A DNA stretch of 18,257 nucleotides from a virus: the UHGV virus genome UHGV-0068637. One strand, given 5' to 3'. The notes beneath the pieces are model-generated. The model ran no database searches, was not told where the DNA came from, and worked only from the letters and a program-made list of their open reading frames with translations. Both the position numbers and the translations under genes were made by a program. This document shows, piece by piece, positions 3,185-18,257 of the stretch (the first letter of the stretch is position 1; each line of letters opens with the position of its first letter).

Positions 3185-3361
3185 CGCAATGACTCCATTA
3201 TGTTAATTAACGGAATAATTCTACCATTTTGTGATCTGTGTTGCATTTTCTGCTTACACAAAATGTATTTGTTGATCTGTGTCAATATACGAAATGTGGT
3301 TTTGTCGGATATTTAAGCCACCGGGTGAACCGGATTAACCAACAAGAATGAGGGTTCAAAA
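3185..3361. promoter_or_regulatory. Divergent intergenic control region between tail fibre (-) and lipoprotein (+) genes
   Basis: 177-bp non-coding gap. Contains a 9-bp inverted repeat CATTTTGTG (3225-3233) / CACAAAATG (3257-3265), a 10-bp direct repeat TGATCTGTGT (3232-3241 and 3273-3282), and a GAGGG Shine-Dalgarno 7 nt before the ATG at 3362. No exact -35/-10 pair could be fixed by eye. Confidence 0.4.
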
Positions 3362-3610
3362 ATGAAAAACGTGTTCAAAGTGGTTTTGTTCGCCACGGCT
3401 GTTGCTCTTACTGGTTGCGCTGTTGACAAGGAGGCTGCATTGCATAACCTGCCGAATAGCGGAGTGATTCCACAAGATGTCGTCTATGATGGCAGCGGTC
3501 ATCTTGTCTATGACACTGAAAAACTGCCGTATACTGGTCAATGGTGTCATGAACTTGATCACAATATGCGCCGCATCGGTAGCCCTTCTAACTGTGTAGC
3601 TAACTACTAA
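3362..3610 (+). CDS. Small secreted lipoprotein, Cor-like superinfection-exclusion candidate
   Basis: 82-aa ORF with a signal peptide and lipobox (MKNVFKVVLFATAVALTG|C), a good RBS, and an intrinsic terminator immediately downstream. It is opposite-strand to, and sandwiched between, the J-like gene and the tail fibre, the position where cor-type lipoprotein morons sit in phi80/N15/T1-like phages. The function is inferred from context only. Confidence 0.65.
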   Translation: MKNVFKVVLFATAVALTGCAVDKEAALHNLPNSGVIPQDVVYDGSGHLVYDTEKLPYTGQWCHELDHNMRRIGSPSNCVANY

Positions 3611-3613
3611 AAG

Positions 3614-3644
3614 AAAACCCCGCGCGAAGCGGGGTTGTTTTTTA
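3614..3644. terminator. Bidirectional rho-independent terminator (lipoprotein gene / J gene convergent)
   Basis: Hairpin CCCCGC-GCGAA-GCGGGG followed by TTGTTTTTT on the plus strand, with an A-run on the other side giving a T-tract on the minus strand. Lies between the convergent stops at 3610 (+) and 3642 (-). Confidence 0.75.
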
Positions 3645-12984: not shown

Positions 12985-13073
12985 GATTCCCCCTATAAGT
13001 TACATATTGCATACATCTTTACGCGCTTCTACGCGAAAAATTAGAACTTCGTCACAAGAATTATACCCAGTTT

Positions 13074-13112
13074 ACAAAATGGCTTCACACAGGACGTAAC
13101 AAGATGTATATA
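13074..13112 (+). promoter_or_regulatory. Candidate promoter for cassette B carrying the conserved ACAAAATGGCTTCAC motif
   Basis: ACAAAATGGCTTCAC at 13074-13088 is identical to 16293-16307. -35-like TTCACA (13084-13089), 17-bp spacer, -10-like TATATA (13107-13112). Confidence 0.35.
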
Positions 13113-13154
13113 GGAAGCAAGAAGAGAAAGCAGTACCAACAAAGGAGGGGCATC

Positions 13155-13310
13155 ATGAAACGCTATGTAGTGGTAATGCTGAACAACGCATTCGAACAGG
13201 TGGAAGTAGCGATCGTTAAAGGCTTCGATGACGCATTCAAATACGGTCAATTCATGATGAATGCAAAAGAAGATGAATACCGTGATTTCTTCCTGAAAGT
13301 GGTCAGCTAA
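13155..13310 (+). CDS. Hypothetical small protein (cassette B, ORF1)
   Basis: 51-aa ORF with a very strong RBS (AAAGGAGGGG) 4 nt before the ATG. No recognisable family. Confidence 0.55.
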   Translation: MKRYVVVMLNNAFEQVEVAIVKGFDDAFKYGQFMMNAKEDEYRDFFLKVVS

Positions 13311-13328
13311 TGGATTGTGGGGTGGGTT

Positions 13329-13583
13329 ATGAAATTGGTGGCGATTGGTAAAAACCTGAAAGCACAGAAAAACGCACAGGACCGGATCATCAAAAAGGGC
13401 AAGGCCTTATTAAACGCTTTCCTGAAAAAAGAGGCCAACCCCAAAAAATTACGCGATGGCTACGGTTATAAATTTGACATCAACCCCGATTGGCGGTTAT
13501 TCAGCGAAGATCTAAAGATGTGGTTAATTATTGACCATCTGGAATACAACCGCCACTGTGGAGTAAAAGGGGCGCATAAATGA
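13329..13583 (+). CDS. Hypothetical lysine-rich basic protein (cassette B, ORF2)
   Basis: 84 aa from the ATG at 13329 (the ORF track uses GTG at 13317). GGGGTGGG upstream. The N-terminal half is highly basic. Confidence 0.5.
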   Translation: MKLVAIGKNLKAQKNAQDRIIKKGKALLNAFLKKEANPKKLRDGYGYKFDINPDWRLFSEDLKMWLIIDHLEYNRHCGVKGAHK

Positions 13584-13591
13584 GGTGAAAT

Positions 13592-13684
13592 ATGGATGAC
13601 GATAAATTCACCTGGCGGGAGATCTGGAGCATCTGGCAGGTGATGTTTGCTCGCAGCTATATAGCAAGAAACGGAAGATTGTGA
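13592..13684 (+). CDS. Possible 30-aa peptide (cassette B, ORF3)
   Basis: MDDDKFTWREIWSIWQVMFARSYIARNGRL. GAGGTGA RBS that overlaps the ORF2 stop. Short and hand-called. Confidence 0.35.
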   Translation: MDDDKFTWREIWSIWQVMFARSYIARNGRL

Positions 13685-13702
13685 TTTGCGGAGGAAAATA
13701 AA

Positions 13703-13879
13703 ATGAAAAACCCGGCAAATAAAAGCAACGTAAAACGTATGGCGTGGGTGCTAAAATATATGGATAGTAAAGGGGATACATATACATGCCCATTTTTCAG
13801 GTATACTGACGCGGTATTTGCCAGAAGTGTACACGGAGGGAAAATTGAAAGAGGGTATACAAGTTTTGAGAATAACTAA
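13703..13879 (+). CDS. Hypothetical 58-aa protein (cassette B, ORF4)
   Basis: GGAGG RBS 8 nt upstream. Followed directly by a terminator. Confidence 0.5.
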   Translation: MKNPANKSNVKRMAWVLKYMDSKGDTYTCPFFRYTDAVFARSVHGGKIERGYTSFENN

Positions 13880-13884
13880 AAGAT

Positions 13885-13918
13885 AACCCCGGCATTGTAC
13901 CGGGGTTTTGTTTATTTG
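13885..13918. terminator. Bidirectional rho-independent terminator (cassette B / H gene convergent)
   Basis: Hairpin AACCCCGG-CATTGTA-CCGGGGTT followed by TTTTGTTTATTT. On the minus strand a T-rich tract follows the stem. Directly abuts the H stop at 13912-13914. Confidence 0.75.
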
Positions 13919-16251
13919 CGGCGAGGTTGCAACATTCCGCCAGGTCGTTGCGATTCCCTTGCCATCATTTTCATTGCTACGCGTTCCATTGTCTGTTCAA
14001 GCCTGCGACCGTCTTCGTCGCTAAATCCGTTTGTGGTCTGTACGGTGATGTTAACAGGCATATTGATGCCGCCACCATTGAAGAGATCGCGGCCAGGAAT
14101 AACCCTGCCATTTTCCCCAGGAATCATATACTGACGCCCGTTGCTCGTCTGGAATAACTCAGGAATCCCGTGTTCCCCTACGCGATACAGACTTCCACCA
14201 TTAACAGAACCACCATTATAACGTCCGCCGCCAAAAATTGACGTTGCCAGCGACATGATCGCAGAAAGTGCCGCAGCACCAGCCGCCGCCCAGCTACCAC
14301 CAGTTGACGCAGCCGTTGCCGCAGCCGCCGGGGCCGCCGCCGCAGCAATCTGACCTTGCGCCGCCACCGCGCCAGCCGTTGTACTTGCCTGGGTAGCCTT
14401 GCTTTGCGTTTCCATCATCAACTGATCTGCTATCCAGTTGGCGGCAATTTCTGATAGTTTGTTGCCAACGGTGTTAAGTATGCTACTTCCCAGGTTAGCA
14501 AAAACCTCGCTTAGTGATTGAGTACCGTTCAACAGGCCGGTAAGCGCATTACCCATGCCACCTTTTAGGCCACTGACACAAGCGCCGATCAGGCCGTTTG
14601 TGTCGCTCTGTGCCTGCCATTGTTCCCATTTCAGATCTCGGATCTGTTGCTCGTATTCCAATTGCGCCTGTCTCTGTTGCGCCTCTGTAGCGCCCAGGTC
14701 CAATAGCATTTGTTTTCTTACAGCCCATTCATTTTGCGCCTGCTTGATTGGGTCAATTTCTCCCTTAAGCTGGTCCATCGGGCTAACTATGTGGTCCCAT
14801 TTGTCGCGTAGCTCATCAACAGGGATCTGAGCTAATTCGTCTTTCAGTTCCTTGCCTATTCCTTTTTGCGCGGCCTTGTACTCAAGGAGGGTTATTTTGC
14901 CCTGGGCGAATGCAGCATCAATGGCCTTGCCGTTCTCCAGCGCTTTACGCATGGCGGCGGCGTCCTTGTTGTACTGGTCGGACACTTTTATACCTTCATC
15001 ACCAAGCCGATCAGCTTCGGATTTCTTTTGTTTTTTAGGTTTTTTCGGCTTACCAACTGGCTGATCGAATCCTGTGATCTTGCCATCGTCAGCCTCACCC
15101 TGTTTCTCCATGAACTCATCATATGCGGCGGTTGCGTTTTTAATGTCGTTTGCAAACGTCATTACTTTGCCAACGGTAGGGCCAAATTTCTTCTCGTTGT
15201 TGCTGTTTAGCTCTTCTTTGCGTTTGTCTACGATCTCCTTCATCCATTTGTAGCCATCCATTAGCGCCTTGATTGGCGTCACCATCCTGATGATTTCTTC
15301 CGCCACCTCGCCAGCTTTAACAGCAACATCGTCAAATATGTCGATGAACTCGCTACCAGCGGTTTTCAGTGTATTGAAACAGGTTGCGGCGAATTTTGCG
15401 CCTTTACCCAATCCCTCAACGCCACCAGTGATTAAGTCTATTGCTGTAACAACGCCGTCAGATATGCCGAAAAGATTATCAAGCTCTTCGACAACGCCCA
15501 TCATCTCAACTTTAAGCTCGTTGAAGGCTATGCCTGTTGTGCGCGGCAATTGTGCGAACTTCTCGTTTGTTTCCTGCGTGGAGGCCTGGATCGCGTTGAG
15601 CATCCTTTCAGCCGTGATCTTACCGTCCAGCATTTCAGCGCGGAACTGACCCATAGATAACCCCATTTGGCGGGCCATTTCCTGTACGATTGTTGGGGTA
15701 TTGTCGCGTATTGAGTTAAATTCTTCCGCCTGCAACACGCCAGCATCAATAGCCTGGCGGAACTGGCGCATGGAGTTAGATAACTGTTCCGCAGACACGC
15801 CGCCCAGACTACCAAGTTTTTGTAGCGTGCTAACCAGGTTGAGCACCTGGCCTTCCGTAGCGGATGTATTTTTTAGCGATATAGCAAGCCCTTGCCACAG
15901 GTCGCCAGTATCCTTGAGGCTTTGGCCTGTTTCTTTTGATATATCTTTCAGTCTGTTGAAAACACGTTCCGTGGCCTCCGCTTCACCTGTGAGCAGTTTG
16001 ATTTTTACGCGAAGCATTTTTGCTTGCTCCGCCATGTCAATAAACTGGCGCACAGCCTCCGCAGCAAGTAATAGATGGATAACCCTGGACAGTGCTTTGA
16101 TTGAAGTCTTAAGCGTGTTTACCTGGCGGTCAGCGCGTTTTGCGCCACGCTCGATGCTGTCAAATGCCTGGTCTGCCTGTCGTTGAGCAACGAGAAGTTG
16201 ACCAGTTTTTGCATCAACTTCGTAATAGATTGTACCTAAACTGGTTGCCAT
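13912..16251 (-). CDS. H: Tail length tape-measure protein (H-like)
   Basis: 779-aa ORF with GAGGT RBS. The N-terminal two-thirds is alpha-helical and rich in charged residues. There is a Gly/Ala-rich hydrophobic stretch near the C-terminus (AAQGQIAAAAAPAAAATAAS...SIFGGG) and a terminal 'GGSLYRVGEHGIPELF' region like lambda H. It sits directly upstream of M. Confidence 0.85.
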   Translation of the reverse strand: MATSLGTIYYEVDAKTGQLLVAQRQADQAFDSIERGAKRADRQVNTLKTSIKALSRVIHLLLAAEAVRQFIDMAEQAKMLRVKIKLLTGEAEATERVFNRLKDISKETGQSLKDTGDLWQGLAISLKNTSATEGQVLNLVSTLQKLGSLGGVSAEQLSNSMRQFRQAIDAGVLQAEEFNSIRDNTPTIVQEMARQMGLSMGQFRAEMLDGKITAERMLNAIQASTQETNEKFAQLPRTTGIAFNELKVEMMGVVEELDNLFGISDGVVTAIDLITGGVEGLGKGAKFAATCFNTLKTAGSEFIDIFDDVAVKAGEVAEEIIRMVTPIKALMDGYKWMKEIVDKRKEELNSNNEKKFGPTVGKVMTFANDIKNATAAYDEFMEKQGEADDGKITGFDQPVGKPKKPKKQKKSEADRLGDEGIKVSDQYNKDAAAMRKALENGKAIDAAFAQGKITLLEYKAAQKGIGKELKDELAQIPVDELRDKWDHIVSPMDQLKGEIDPIKQAQNEWAVRKQMLLDLGATEAQQRQAQLEYEQQIRDLKWEQWQAQSDTNGLIGACVSGLKGGMGNALTGLLNGTQSLSEVFANLGSSILNTVGNKLSEIAANWIADQLMMETQSKATQASTTAGAVAAQGQIAAAAAPAAAATAASTGGSWAAAGAAALSAIMSLATSIFGGGRYNGGSVNGGSLYRVGEHGIPELFQTSNGRQYMIPGENGRVIPGRDLFNGGGINMPVNITVQTTNGFSDEDGRRLEQTMERVAMKMMARESQRPGGMLQPRRK

Positions 16252-16289
16252 GATTTAACCTCATGAAAGTGTGATCTAGATCTCTATTC

Positions 16290-16331
16290 TATACAAAATG
16301 GCTTCACTTCAACGTATACATTTTGTATAAA
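16290..16331 (+). promoter_or_regulatory. Candidate promoter/operator for cassette C with conserved motif and 11-bp inverted repeat
   Basis: TATACAAAATG (16290-16300) and CATTTTGTATA (16319-16329) form an inverted repeat. ACAAAATGGCTTCAC at 16293-16307. -35-like TTCACT (16303-16308), 17-bp spacer, -10-like TATAAA (16326-16331). The palindrome GATCTAGATC lies just upstream (16273-16282). Confidence 0.35.
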
Positions 16332-16407
16332 GAAGTCAAAGGAAAGGGATTGAGCGAATGGATTCAGAAGGCCGGATGAACCGGAGGAAGCAAAAGAGGA
16401 TAAGAAA

Positions 16408-16494
16408 ATGAAAAACTACTACCGACCCAACGAGCATGAGCGTTATGCCGACTTCATCGAAGAAATGCTGAAAGCACTTAAAAACAAGAAATAA
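16408..16494 (+). CDS. Possible 28-aa peptide (cassette C, ORF1)
   Basis: MKNYYRPNEHERYADFIEEMLKALKNKK. AGAGGA RBS. A 17-aa upstream mini-ORF (16358-16411) overlaps its start. Confidence 0.35.
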   Translation: MKNYYRPNEHERYADFIEEMLKALKNKK

Positions 16495-16507
16495 ACGGGT
16501 TGGGTAA

Positions 16508-16615
16508 ATGGACACAATCAAAACGTTTATAGATGTATATATTACAGCATGGTTAGCATTTAATGTGATGGCTGTGCTAGTGCTGGCAATGACAACCGAA
16601 GATAAACGTAATTAA
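16508..16615 (+). CDS. Possible 35-aa membrane peptide (cassette C, ORF2)
   Basis: MDTIKTFIDVYITAWLAFNVMAVLVLAMTTEDKRN, with one hydrophobic helix. Its stop overlaps the next ATG (TAATG). Confidence 0.35.
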   Translation: MDTIKTFIDVYITAWLAFNVMAVLVLAMTTEDKRN

Positions 16616-16929
16616 TGGGGGTTATCATGGAACTGGTAATTGCATTCATCGGCTTTATCGCAACTATGGTTGTAGCTCAGAAAAAACATCTGAATATGCT
16701 ATTGGCATTCTTTGGTGCGCTGATTTTCTGGCCTGGGGTATTGATTTACGCACTGTGCGTTAACAAAAAGATGTTTAAACACTACGTCGATGCATTGACT
16801 TTCGTTAACATGGAGTACCCAAACGCAACTGACGTACAGAAAGCACAGGTTGCAACTTACCTTTACGATAACGTGTACGATATTCACGACCTGGATGAGG
16901 CAAGATGCAGATTTGCAGCATACAAATAA
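16615..16929 (+). CDS. Hypothetical small inner-membrane protein (cassette C, ORF3)
   Basis: About 100-104 aa; alternative ATG at 16627 preceded by GGGGG. Two predicted TM helices (LVIAFIGFIATMVVA, LLAFFGALIFWPGVLIYALCV) then a soluble tail. A terminator follows directly. Confidence 0.55.
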   Translation: MGVIMELVIAFIGFIATMVVAQKKHLNMLLAFFGALIFWPGVLIYALCVNKKMFKHYVDALTFVNMEYPNATDVQKAQVATYLYDNVYDIHDLDEARCRFAAYK

Positions 16930-16934
16930 AAATA

Positions 16935-16960
16935 AAGGCCCGGTTAATTCCGGGCTTTTT
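16935..16960. terminator. Bidirectional rho-independent terminator (cassette C / chaperone gene convergent)
   Basis: Hairpin GGCCCGG-TTAATT-CCGGGCC... followed by TTTTT on the plus strand and by TTTATTTTTATTT on the minus strand. The stop codon of the minus-strand gene lies in the loop. Confidence 0.7.
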
Positions 16961-17624
16961 CTTGCTCGCGTTTTTTCATCAATTCCAGCACCCTTTTAGC
17001 GGCCTCCATTTGCTCATCATAATCACGTTTATTTATATGAACGTTTGGCTTACGTTTCTCGTTTCTTTCGTCTGGTGGCGTTTTAGCGCGTACAGCGGCC
17101 CTGTATCCGGTCATTGTCATGCCCCATGCTTCAGATTCAGACAATCCCAGGTGAGCAACGGCAGAATAAACATACTCAAGGATGTCGAATGTCTGCTTAT
17201 AGTCGCCTTCCTGCTCCTCTCCAGCGTCTTCATCTGGTCCGTCACCAATTAAGCCGTGATACATGCAGTGTTGCGCCAGCGTGATAACGTCGCTGGTGGG
17301 CATCAACCCAGGTTTCAGTCTCAACTTACCCGAAGGAGTAAAGCTGCATTCGCCCAATAACTGGCCTATTTCGCATTCTGAGCAACATTTCAGGACGTGG
17401 ATGGACGTTTGCACTAACTCACCATAACAACGCGCCATAATGCGATTGCGGAGGTCTGGATCCGTTGGCAAACGCTGTGGATATTTACCACCGTGCACAG
17501 TTGCGAAGTATTCGACCAATTCCCTGTCACTGCCGATCTTAGCCATTGCAGCAAAGCAGGGATTGAACACATACCGCCTGCCATCAACCACAGCCGCAAA
17601 TTGTCCTGTTCGAACATGAATCAT
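16944..17624 (-). CDS. Putative tail assembly chaperone (position of lambda G/T), Cys-containing
   Basis: 227 aa from the ATG at 17622-17624 with AAGGTGA RBS (the ORF track extends to a TTG at 17663 through a terminator hairpin). It lies between the putative tube protein and the tape measure. The acidic C-terminal half (DGPDEDAGEEQEGDY) fits a chaperone, but no G/GT frameshift was identified. Function is assigned by position only. Confidence 0.4.
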   Translation of the reverse strand: MIHVRTGQFAAVVDGRRYVFNPCFAAMAKIGSDRELVEYFATVHGGKYPQRLPTDPDLRNRIMARCYGELVQTSIHVLKCCSECEIGQLLGECSFTPSGKLRLKPGLMPTSDVITLAQHCMYHGLIGDGPDEDAGEEQEGDYKQTFDILEYVYSAVAHLGLSESEAWGMTMTGYRAAVRAKTPPDERNEKRKPNVHINKRDYDEQMEAAKRVLELMKKREQEKARN

Positions 17625-17633
17625 AGCTGTCAC

Positions 17634-17661
17634 CTTAAAAATAAAGGGGCCATGTGGCCCC
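17634..17661 (-). terminator. Rho-independent terminator downstream of the putative major tail protein gene
   Basis: Perfect hairpin GGGGCC-ATGT-GGCCCC (17646-17661 on the plus strand) followed on the minus strand by TTTATTTTTAAGG. Sits between the stop at 17679 and the next minus-strand start at 17624. Confidence 0.65.
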
Positions 17662-17678
17662 AATGTCAGTGTTTGTTG

Positions 17679-18155
17679 TTACGCCGCCGGAACGTCAGCT
17701 ACTGTAACCTTGCCAGCGCTTTCGCATTCAATGGACCAGGTGGACACATCGTCATGCGGATCTTCTTCTTTAAAGGAAGTGCAAAGAAACGGGCCTTCAG
17801 TCACATCAAGCGGAGAAACAATTTTTAACCATACGATTGGCTGAGAACCAGTTACCTCACCCGGGTTAATAACGTGGCGTTTCAACTCTTTCTGATTGTG
17901 AAGCGCTTCTGTGCGGGATACGCCGTCACCTGAGAAGGAAACGGACTTGTAAGTTACCAGTGATTCTTTGGTGTAGTCTGCTGATTTGTCAGCGGTGGCG
18001 TCTGCGGTTTCCCATTCTACGGAAAGAGATTTACCACGCATCATGCCTAACGCTTTATATGCTTCGTCATTAGGTTTCGCATTAGGGCAAGCGATAGCGT
18101 AAAATACGGCAACGTCGCGGCCTAAGAACGAACCTTTATCACAAGTCTGAGACAT
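17679..18155 (-). CDS. Putative major tail (tube) protein
   Basis: 158-aa ORF with a strong RBS (AAGAGGT). It is immediately upstream of the chaperone and tape-measure genes and is followed by its own terminator, typical for a highly expressed tube subunit. The size fits small siphovirus tube proteins. Assignment is by context and composition, not a recognised motif. Confidence 0.5.
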   Translation of the reverse strand: MSQTCDKGSFLGRDVAVFYAIACPNAKPNDEAYKALGMMRGKSLSVEWETADATADKSADYTKESLVTYKSVSFSGDGVSRTEALHNQKELKRHVINPGEVTGSQPIVWLKIVSPLDVTEGPFLCTSFKEEDPHDDVSTWSIECESAGKVTVADVPAA

Positions 18156-18257
18156 GTTTAGTTACCTCTTATCTAGATATGATGGTTTGAAAAGCTACGG
18201 TAAAAATAAAGCGCCCTTCTCTTGTCTGCATTGCAGGAATAGCGCCAACTGGCTTCA

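Follow-up and report, generated by a model that had tools for sequence, protein, structure and literature searches.

T4 Imm and P22 SieA are inner-membrane proteins that block the entry of phage DNA, and they are among the systems with which we compare cassette C, a small plus-strand gene cassette in UHGV virus genome UHGV-0068637; we refer to the whole 18,257-nucleotide (nt) stretch analysed as the window. HK97 gene 15 is the archetypal first moron; its neighbours are the tail chaperone and tape-measure genes, and its product, an exclusion protein of the inner membrane, blocks DNA entry, that is, genome injection (PMC3594210). In the mEpimmI phages, cloned lipoproteins exclude phages experimentally (PMC11893012). 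The phi80 gene taiEcA is an opposite-strand moron that interrupts a Q-dependent late operon, and its level drops upon Q expression (PMC11364771).

The window is the tail-gene region of a temperate Escherichia coli siphophage or prophage of the mEpimmI group (mEp021-like); with phages mEp044 and mEp554, and with several E. coli prophages, the stretch around cassette C shares 92-94% identity. Cassette C fills the 692-nt gap from the DUF6246 gene to the tape-measure gene (window 16252-16962). On balance, and by analogy with the systems above, we lean toward the view that it is an autonomous opposite-strand moron in the late tail operon of the mEpimmI group, encoding a predicted inner-membrane pair. 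The layout is that of a noncontiguous operon, with three plus-strand genes between the minus-strand DUF6246 and tape-measure genes. The locus also shows the terminator, the divergent base composition and the presence or replacement among relatives that characterise morons according to Juhala and Hendrix (via PMC3594210). For comparison we used the window, 14 phage or prophage loci (cited below by L numbers where needed) and 43 IMG/VR contigs, about 58 mEpimmI phages and prophages. The features of cassette C, with lengths in amino acids (aa), are as follows.

16270-16285, plus strand: TGTGA-N6-TCTCT box, CRP-like, 8/10 matches; TGTGAT is present in all relatives.
16290-16329, no strand assigned: inverted repeat TATACAAAATG-N18-CATTTTGTATA, with arms kept and a spacer that varies.
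16303-16331, plus strand: candidate sigma-70 promoter, with -35 TTCACT (16303-16308), a 17-nt spacer and -10 TATAAA (16326-16331); start near 16338.
16338-16407, plus strand: purine-rich leader with hairpin CCGG-ATGAA-CCGG (16372-16384) and GAGG ribosome-binding site (16396-16399), conserved in relatives.
16408-16494, plus strand: orf28, 28 aa, hydrophilic, MKNYYRPNEHERYADFIEEMLKALKNKK; the usual first gene of the cassette with any cargo.
16508-16615, plus strand: orf35, 35 aa, predicted single-pass membrane peptide, transmembrane (TM) segment at residues 6-30.
16627-16929, plus strand: orf100, 100 aa, two predicted N-terminal TM helices, then a C-terminal helical domain of ~55 aa.
16934-16959, both strands: bidirectional intrinsic terminator for orf100 (plus) and DUF6246 (minus).

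Every compared locus has a plus-strand unit between its tape-measure and DUF6246 genes. Its constant part consists of a ~70-nt regulatory region, the purine-rich leader and, in most genomes, orf28, and at least nine cargo types occur in the slot, as listed here.

orf35+orf100: 16 loci, window included.
Sec-signal proteins: 116/119, 138 and 165 aa.
Lipoproteins: VasI/TagO-like (219 aa), BamE-like (124 aa), plus further ones of 203 and 245 aa.
Small soluble open reading frames (ORFs): few.
Mosaics: 116+35+100, 138+35+100 and 138+124.

The slot is a recombination hotspot in which mostly envelope-targeted cargo is swapped behind a fixed regulatory region, usually with orf28. The sequenced alternative cargo carries Sec signals or lipoboxes, or matches the VasI/TagO and BamE families. 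We conclude that cargo is exchanged between conserved flanks because tape-measure proteins 97-98% identical to that of the window flank a different cargo, '138' or '138+124'. The distant relative L155 has orf29 alone in the slot, with its own promoter and terminator, and between its tail-tube and DUF6246 genes it carries the promoter element a second time (L155 1585-2122), ahead of a 122-aa orf100 homologue that has no orf35 beside it. Judging from this second copy, the promoter module appears to be portable.

The genes orf28, orf35 and orf100 are real protein-coding genes under purifying selection, because their variation in relatives is biased by codon position and their ratios of nonsynonymous to synonymous substitution rates (dN/dS) are low. 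Variable columns at codon positions 1, 2 and 3 number 5/3/19 in orf28 (12 loci; dN/dS 0.06, dS 0.69), 10/4/18 in orf35 (7 loci; dN/dS about 0.15) and 21/10/45 in orf100 (7 loci; dN/dS about 0.1-0.2), and the orf28 alignment has a 3-nt indel that keeps the frame. The earlier note on this DNA, made from the letters alone, had listed plus-strand ORFs of 28 and 35 aa and a third of about 100 aa, and all three are found where it had placed them. As listed, the third ORF runs for 104 aa from ATG 16615 and ends at 16929; the conserved start is ATG 16627, which gives 100 aa and stands behind a GGGGG/GGAGG ribosome-binding site, and ATG 16615 is missing in 5 of 7 relatives, mEp044 and N1286 among them. 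orf28 was found in 12 of 13 relatives, with a length of 27-29 aa across genomes, and orf35 never occurs without orf100 among close relatives. The most conserved stretch of orf100 is FWPxVLIYALCVNK.

Kyte-Doolittle hydropathy predicts TM segments at residues 6-30 of orf35 and at residues 1-19 and 21-46 of orf100, and the AlphaFold2 model of orf100 (predicted local distance difference test score 74.5) has helices at residues 2-19, 24-63, 69-82 and 86-95. orf35 and orf100 are thus predicted inner-membrane proteins by their hydropathy segments, in keeping with the small membrane-protein cassette that the earlier note had described, including its ~100-aa protein with two N-terminal TM helices. Neither protein has a lipobox. 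Searches of Pfam, PHROGs, NCBIfam and PADLOC returned nothing above noise for orf28, orf35 or orf100. For orf100, a Pfam scan at an expect value (E) of at most 1 gave only a sub-threshold NdhL match (0.043) and no Imm_superinfect, and Foldseek found no match to its model in BFVD at E<=1e-3. A sequence-profile search of the PDB gave no match, and no defence-protein model in PADLOC-DB matches orf28, orf35, orf100 or six alternative cargo proteins. Since family, fold and defence databases gave no match, we approach the function of orf35 and orf100 by analogy alone.

The distribution of the cargo genes is very narrow. Relatives of orf100 at >=70% identity form only eight clusters, and when 1.84 billion representatives were searched exhaustively by profile, three clusters in total emerged at 50% identity. 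Among 50,697 phage records searched by tblastn, orf35 and orf100 occur in mEp044 and mEp554 only, and orf28 in six mEpimmI phages only. The regulatory region with orf28 is present in 34 of 5,426 complete E. coli genomes, and annotation beneath it is almost always absent.

The cassette ends at a strong terminator with the stem AAAGGCCCGG / CCGGGCTTT (16934-16943 / 16950-16959). Its folding energy is -16.4 kcal/mol for the plus strand (z -3.4) and -14.3 kcal/mol for the minus strand, a T-run follows the stem on both strands, and the loop TTAATT (16944-16949) holds the complement of the TAA stop codon of DUF6246 (16944-16946). Energies, T-runs and loop sequence all agree with the bidirectional terminator of the earlier note, whose loop was said to contain the stop codon of the minus-strand gene. 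The one Rfam match on 15500-18257, a Trp-leader over the terminator, is a chance one (E 0.73). G+C content is 0.38-0.42 in cassette C versus about 0.50 in the flanks, and GC skew is reversed; together with the terminator, this composition fits the opposite-strand unit that had been proposed.

Upstream of orf28 we found a perfect 11-nt inverted repeat, TATACAAAATG at 16290-16300 and CATTTTGTATA at 16319-16329, separated by an 18-nt spacer; 0 of 200 shuffles contain one. Both arms keep their sequence in 11 BLAST-selected relatives and likewise in 43 IMG/VR contigs, the viral contigs having been scanned with a strict fixed-gap pattern. The 11 BLAST-selected loci show no variation in TGTGAT (16270-16275), in the left arm, or in the right arm together with TATAAAG. 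The spacer varies in 16 of 18 columns and has 20 unique versions, which were gathered by a pattern that requires the arms; every locus that could be evaluated fits that pattern, and other criteria had governed the choice of loci. A loose repeat pattern (20 specified bases, variable gap) run over genome contigs gave only unrelated AT-rich chance matches. Distant loci have single changes in the regulatory element, and L159 has one change in one arm. The repeat was also considered as an RNA hairpin; its arms are nearly invariant, hence no covariation is testable, and the L159 change is one-sided.

We infer that TTCACT-17-TATAAA is a sigma-70 promoter, because this arrangement is conserved and is in register with scan-supported promoters of a related phage. 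The earlier note had seen here a candidate promoter with a large inverted repeat: the repeat stands, but a consensus promoter scan of 15900-17300 returned no sigma-70 site. TTCACT-17-TATAAA was missed by that scan because its last -10 base is not T. A leftward promoter within the repeat that would restart tape-measure transcription was rejected, as its -35 would lie entirely in variable spacer columns; the rightward -35 retains an invariant TT. The TGTGA box is centred about -61 from the inferred start at 16338, which is the class I CRP position (near -61.5); 8/10 CRP-like sites number 14 in the window versus 9.3 expected, and the TGTGA box alone carries no significance. Overlapping the box is GATCTAGATC (16273-16282), a 10-bp palindrome with two Dam sites, which among the aligned elements occurs in the window and L146 only; most relatives have TCTATGTC. 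A ~92-nt purine-rich insertion, downstream of the promoter and upstream of the CCGG hairpin, lengthens the leader in L004 (UMNK88), L135, L148, L153 and L155:600-715; the window lacks it.

The left arm plus the following G (16290-16301) forms a 12-nt motif that is common to other promoters of the phage group. Written as T[AT]TAC[AG][AG]AATG, it has 12 copies in the mEp044 genome versus 0.3 expected. These copies are mostly intergenic and 1-2 nt upstream of a -35, and one site is beside a boxA-like sequence; positions in mEp044 (L157/L158) include 9674, 10517, 17940/18018, 23446, 38788/38827, 42269 and 51763. Scan-supported promoters, TTGACT-17-TATATT and TTAACA-17-TACATT, are found on either side of the cI-like repressor gene of mEp044, and at both of them the motif ends 1-2 nt upstream of the -35, a register equal to that in cassette C. 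The motif is also found upstream of two further cassettes of the window, B (13071) and A (3286). Two readings of the motif suggest themselves, an UP-like promoter element and the site or operator of a global regulator.

Related elements occur elsewhere in the group. In mEp044, 23427-23523 is a paralogous copy of the promoter and leader (nhmmer E 1.9e-4), whose CRP-type palindrome, TGTGATCTGTATCACA, is perfect and occupies the register of the TGTGA box of the window; a 45-aa ORF and a terminator-like hairpin come after it (L157 23427-23700). This paralogue is just upstream of the lysis genes on the late-gene strand, and its layout is reminiscent of lambda pR'-tR'. Within the window, cassette A (3220-3640) is an opposite-strand unit with an 82-aa lipoprotein (MKNVFKVVLFATAVALTGC..., ORF 3362-3610, lipobox LTGC), and its upstream region shares with cassette C GTGATCTGTGT, the ACACAAAATG/TATACGAAATG motifs and a leader hairpin, CCGG-GTGAA-CCGG. 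Cassette B (13041-13905), a third opposite-strand unit, has TTTACAAAATGGCTTCAC upstream (13071-13088), with 17/18 positions as in cassette C, then TTCACA-17-TATATA. It contains several small ORFs of unassigned function, and the terminator at its end adjoins the tape-measure stop codon.

In the mechanism that we propose, a sigma-70 promoter between the repeat arms, with the TGTGA box near -61, would drive orf28, orf35 and orf100; the cassette would be expressed from the prophage, and the 35-aa and 100-aa proteins would insert into the inner membrane. By analogy with HK97 gp15, the likeliest function of orf35 and orf100 may be to block the genome entry of superinfecting phages, a suggestion that we make tentatively. 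To reach the tape-measure gene during lytic growth, late transcription would have to pass the terminator and ~690 nt of the cassette in antisense; antitermination by Nus factors is a known requirement of mEpimmI phages (PMC11893012). Such antisense late transcription would damp expression of the cassette, as in the 'noncontiguous operon' of phi80 taiEcA.

Several observations weigh against this account of cassette C. The consensus scan, as noted above, found no sigma-70 site upstream of orf28. The presence of the 12-nt motif at the early promoters beside the repressor gene makes phage control of the cassette possible, in place of constitutive expression in lysogens. The membrane topology of orf100 is ambiguous, with positive charges on both sides of its second TM segment. 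orf35 and orf100 are orphans, with no match by family (Pfam, PHROGs, NCBIfam, PADLOC), PDB sequence or BFVD fold, and BLASTP of the two proteins against HK97 gp15 gave no alignment at E<=100. Cargo type does not track tape-measure type, so that there is no hint of a tape-measure-specific lock and key.

The alternatives begin with the question of which strand codes, and this question involves the neighbouring minus-strand genes, which are the following.

13912-16251, minus strand: tape-measure gene, 779 aa (Pfam TMP_3 2.2e-49, phrog_1538 7.5e-138), the left flank.
16944-17624, minus strand: DUF6246 gene, 226 aa from a conserved ATG (PF19759 8.5e-58, phrog_791 2.6e-66), the right flank.
17679-18155, minus strand: tail-tube gene (Phage_tail_2, phrog_853).

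With the tail-tube gene on one side and the tape-measure gene on the other, DUF6246 occupies the chaperone slot. Its homologues are likewise 226 aa in PGAP annotation, and a search against PDB sequences gave no significant match, so its chaperone role is assigned by position only. The earlier note had stated that a second chaperone ORF would normally lie on the minus strand at the position of cassette C, which would make the arrangement more unusual. The arrangement is not unusual, since HK97 gene 15 occupies the same slot, and the place of the chaperone is not empty, as it holds one 226-aa DUF6246 ORF (E 8.5e-58). We observed no conserved frameshift partner beside this single ORF. Tape-measure length differs within the group (L007/L010/L134/L152, L008/L009 and the window were compared), with values of about 735, about 780 and about 1050 aa, and in L163 and L179 the tape-measure N-terminus differs but the cassette promoter element is the same.

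Annotations of the region conflict: PGAP calls a plus-strand 100-aa gene, and PHANOTATE calls minus-strand ORFs in mEp554 and partly in mEp044. The PHANOTATE-based GenBank ORFs antisense to orf28, orf35 and orf100 are at 1738-2289 in L011 (mEp554) and at 3237-3416 in L002 (mEp044); RefSeq/PGAP annotates orf100 and omits orf28 and orf35, a 29-aa ORF being annotated in mEp515 only. One could therefore read the plus-strand ORFs as antisense artefacts, the true gene being a minus-strand ORF of chaperone type such as a T-like -1 frameshift extension of DUF6246. Besides the PHANOTATE calls, this reading can draw on the window itself, where the frame at -1 to DUF6246 shares the last 17 codons of that gene and then stays open for 80 more. 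Among 15 relatives, however, the opening past the DUF6246 stop ranges from 0 to 126 codons, being 26 in mEp044 (94% identical), 4-30 in others, three of which have 16-30, and 0 in five relatives; an ORF in the -1 frame that overlaps the chaperone gene at its 3' end, as in a G/GT pair, is thus not conserved in these 15. No minus-strand stop-free segment of >=25 codons in 16200-17000 matches a Pfam or PHROG family at E<=0.05. Variation is concentrated at plus-strand third codon positions, and these most variable columns of the orf100 region are codon position 1 of the -1 frame. Moreover, unrelated cargo replaces the entire stretch in close relatives, and PGAP calls the plus-strand gene. The frame-opening, profile, codon-position and cargo-replacement tests refute the antisense reading, which we regard as virtually negligible. 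Because the minus strand fails the profile, conservation and codon-position tests, there is no hidden minus-strand chaperone ORF, and the plus-strand genes are real; the conserved minus-strand chaperone ORF that the earlier note had named as its own refutation was looked for by profile search in Pfam and PHROG, and none was found.

The plus-strand genes might still serve other ends than exclusion. The size and hydrophobicity of orf35, and its strict pairing with orf100 in close relatives, would suit a toxin-like or abortive-infection module in which orf35 resembles a type I toxin (cf. TisB, Ldr), orf100 modulates or neutralises it and infection leads to membrane depolarisation; antisense late transcription could then serve as control at the RNA level. 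We put little weight on such a module, as there is no PADLOC or Pfam match, the distant orf100 homologue of L155 has no orf35 partner, and the other cargo of the slot consists of ordinary exported proteins and lipoproteins, with no toxins. It is also conceivable, although unlikely, that the cassette effects lysogenic conversion apart from phage defence, its envelope proteins altering host physiology (stress tolerance, transporter modulation or gut colonisation). All identifiable cargo of the slot is envelope-targeted, including the VasI/TagO-like and BamE-like lipoproteins, the CRP-like box could tie expression to nutrient state, and many of the small membrane proteins of E. coli modulate transporters (also noted in PMC3594210); but conversion has no positive support, and the sole tested cassette of the phage group is an exclusion lipoprotein (PMC11893012). 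The regulatory region admits a further reading, in which the unit is controlled by the phage and acts in infection or induction but not in the lysogen (transient exclusion, lysis timing, or orf28 as a regulator) with the repeat as its operator. The ~40-fold enrichment of the 12-nt motif in mEp044, at the repressor-flanking promoters and near a nut site, points this way, as do the paralogous promoter and leader, which precede a short ORF with a terminator immediately before the lysis genes, and the retention of orf28 across cargo types and alone in L155. The motif, however, is non-palindromic and has one orientation, 1-2 nt upstream of the -35, which an UP-like element fits equally well, and a 28-aa peptide is improbable as a DNA binder; we rate phage control as quite improbable. 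A broader proposal, distinctly unlikely in our estimation, is that the constant part (repeat, TGTGA box, 12-nt motif and orf28) is a phage-wide regulatory device through which either host CRP or a phage regulator would control early promoters and tail-operon cassettes as one regulon, with orf28 as a new micro-protein effector or regulator; the exchangeable envelope cargo, the orphans orf35 and orf100 included, would then be brought into play at a set stage of infection as a new two-component inner-membrane exclusion system.

If the exclusion function that we prefer is correct, orf35 and orf100 would represent a new family of superinfection-exclusion proteins of the inner membrane, one with a very narrow distribution. 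The slot is perhaps more useful than these two genes: with a constant regulatory region and terminator around at least nine exchangeable, mostly envelope-targeted modules, it offers a catalogue of candidate exclusion or lysogenic-conversion genes in a phage group that is frequent in the human gut. The genome paper of the group (PMC11893012) does not describe the hotspot architecture, nor does it mention the conserved 28-aa protein or the phage-wide motif. There are also consequences for annotation, as orf28 and orf35 are absent from RefSeq, leaving a conserved 28-aa protein under strong purifying selection unrecognised, and PHANOTATE antisense ORFs cover the cassette region in mEp554 and mEp044. 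Cassette C is no surprise to specialists, and we see it as a lead toward new exclusion genes and a conserved micro-protein.

The likeness to T4 Imm and P22 SieA is by analogy only, these also being small phage-encoded multi-TM inner-membrane proteins; they differ from cassette C in genomic context, and the cassette C proteins have no Pfam Imm_superinfect match. With phi80 taiEcA the cassette shares an opposite-strand gene (immunity-type in phi80) that interrupts a late operon, but TaiEcA is a 26-kDa soluble tail-assembly inhibitor encoded upstream of the packaging genes, to which the cassette C proteins have no homology. The mEpimmI cassettes for Lpp021 and Lpp010 (Cor-like) are alike in phage group, in being opposite-strand units that end in a terminator, and in an envelope-targeted product, and their upstream elements, GTGATCT, a ACAAAATG-type motif and a CCGG-N5-CCGG leader hairpin, are as in cassette C. 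The Lpp proteins are outer-membrane-directed lipoproteins with proven exclusion (PMC11893012), whereas orf35 and orf100 are predicted inner-membrane proteins without a lipobox; the lipoprotein ORF of cassette A (3362-3610) looks like the counterpart of these tested exclusion lipoproteins. HK97 gp15, a YebO-like superinfection-exclusion protein, is alike in its slot, its own terminator, its small inner-membrane product and its absence or replacement in related phages (PMC3594210). It differs in being one 62-aa single-pass protein encoded on the tail-gene strand, whereas cassette C has three genes on the opposite strand, and the YebO family is absent from our Pfam scan results. Although not a family member by sequence, cassette C resembles the HK97 gp15 moron in its position and in its proposed function.

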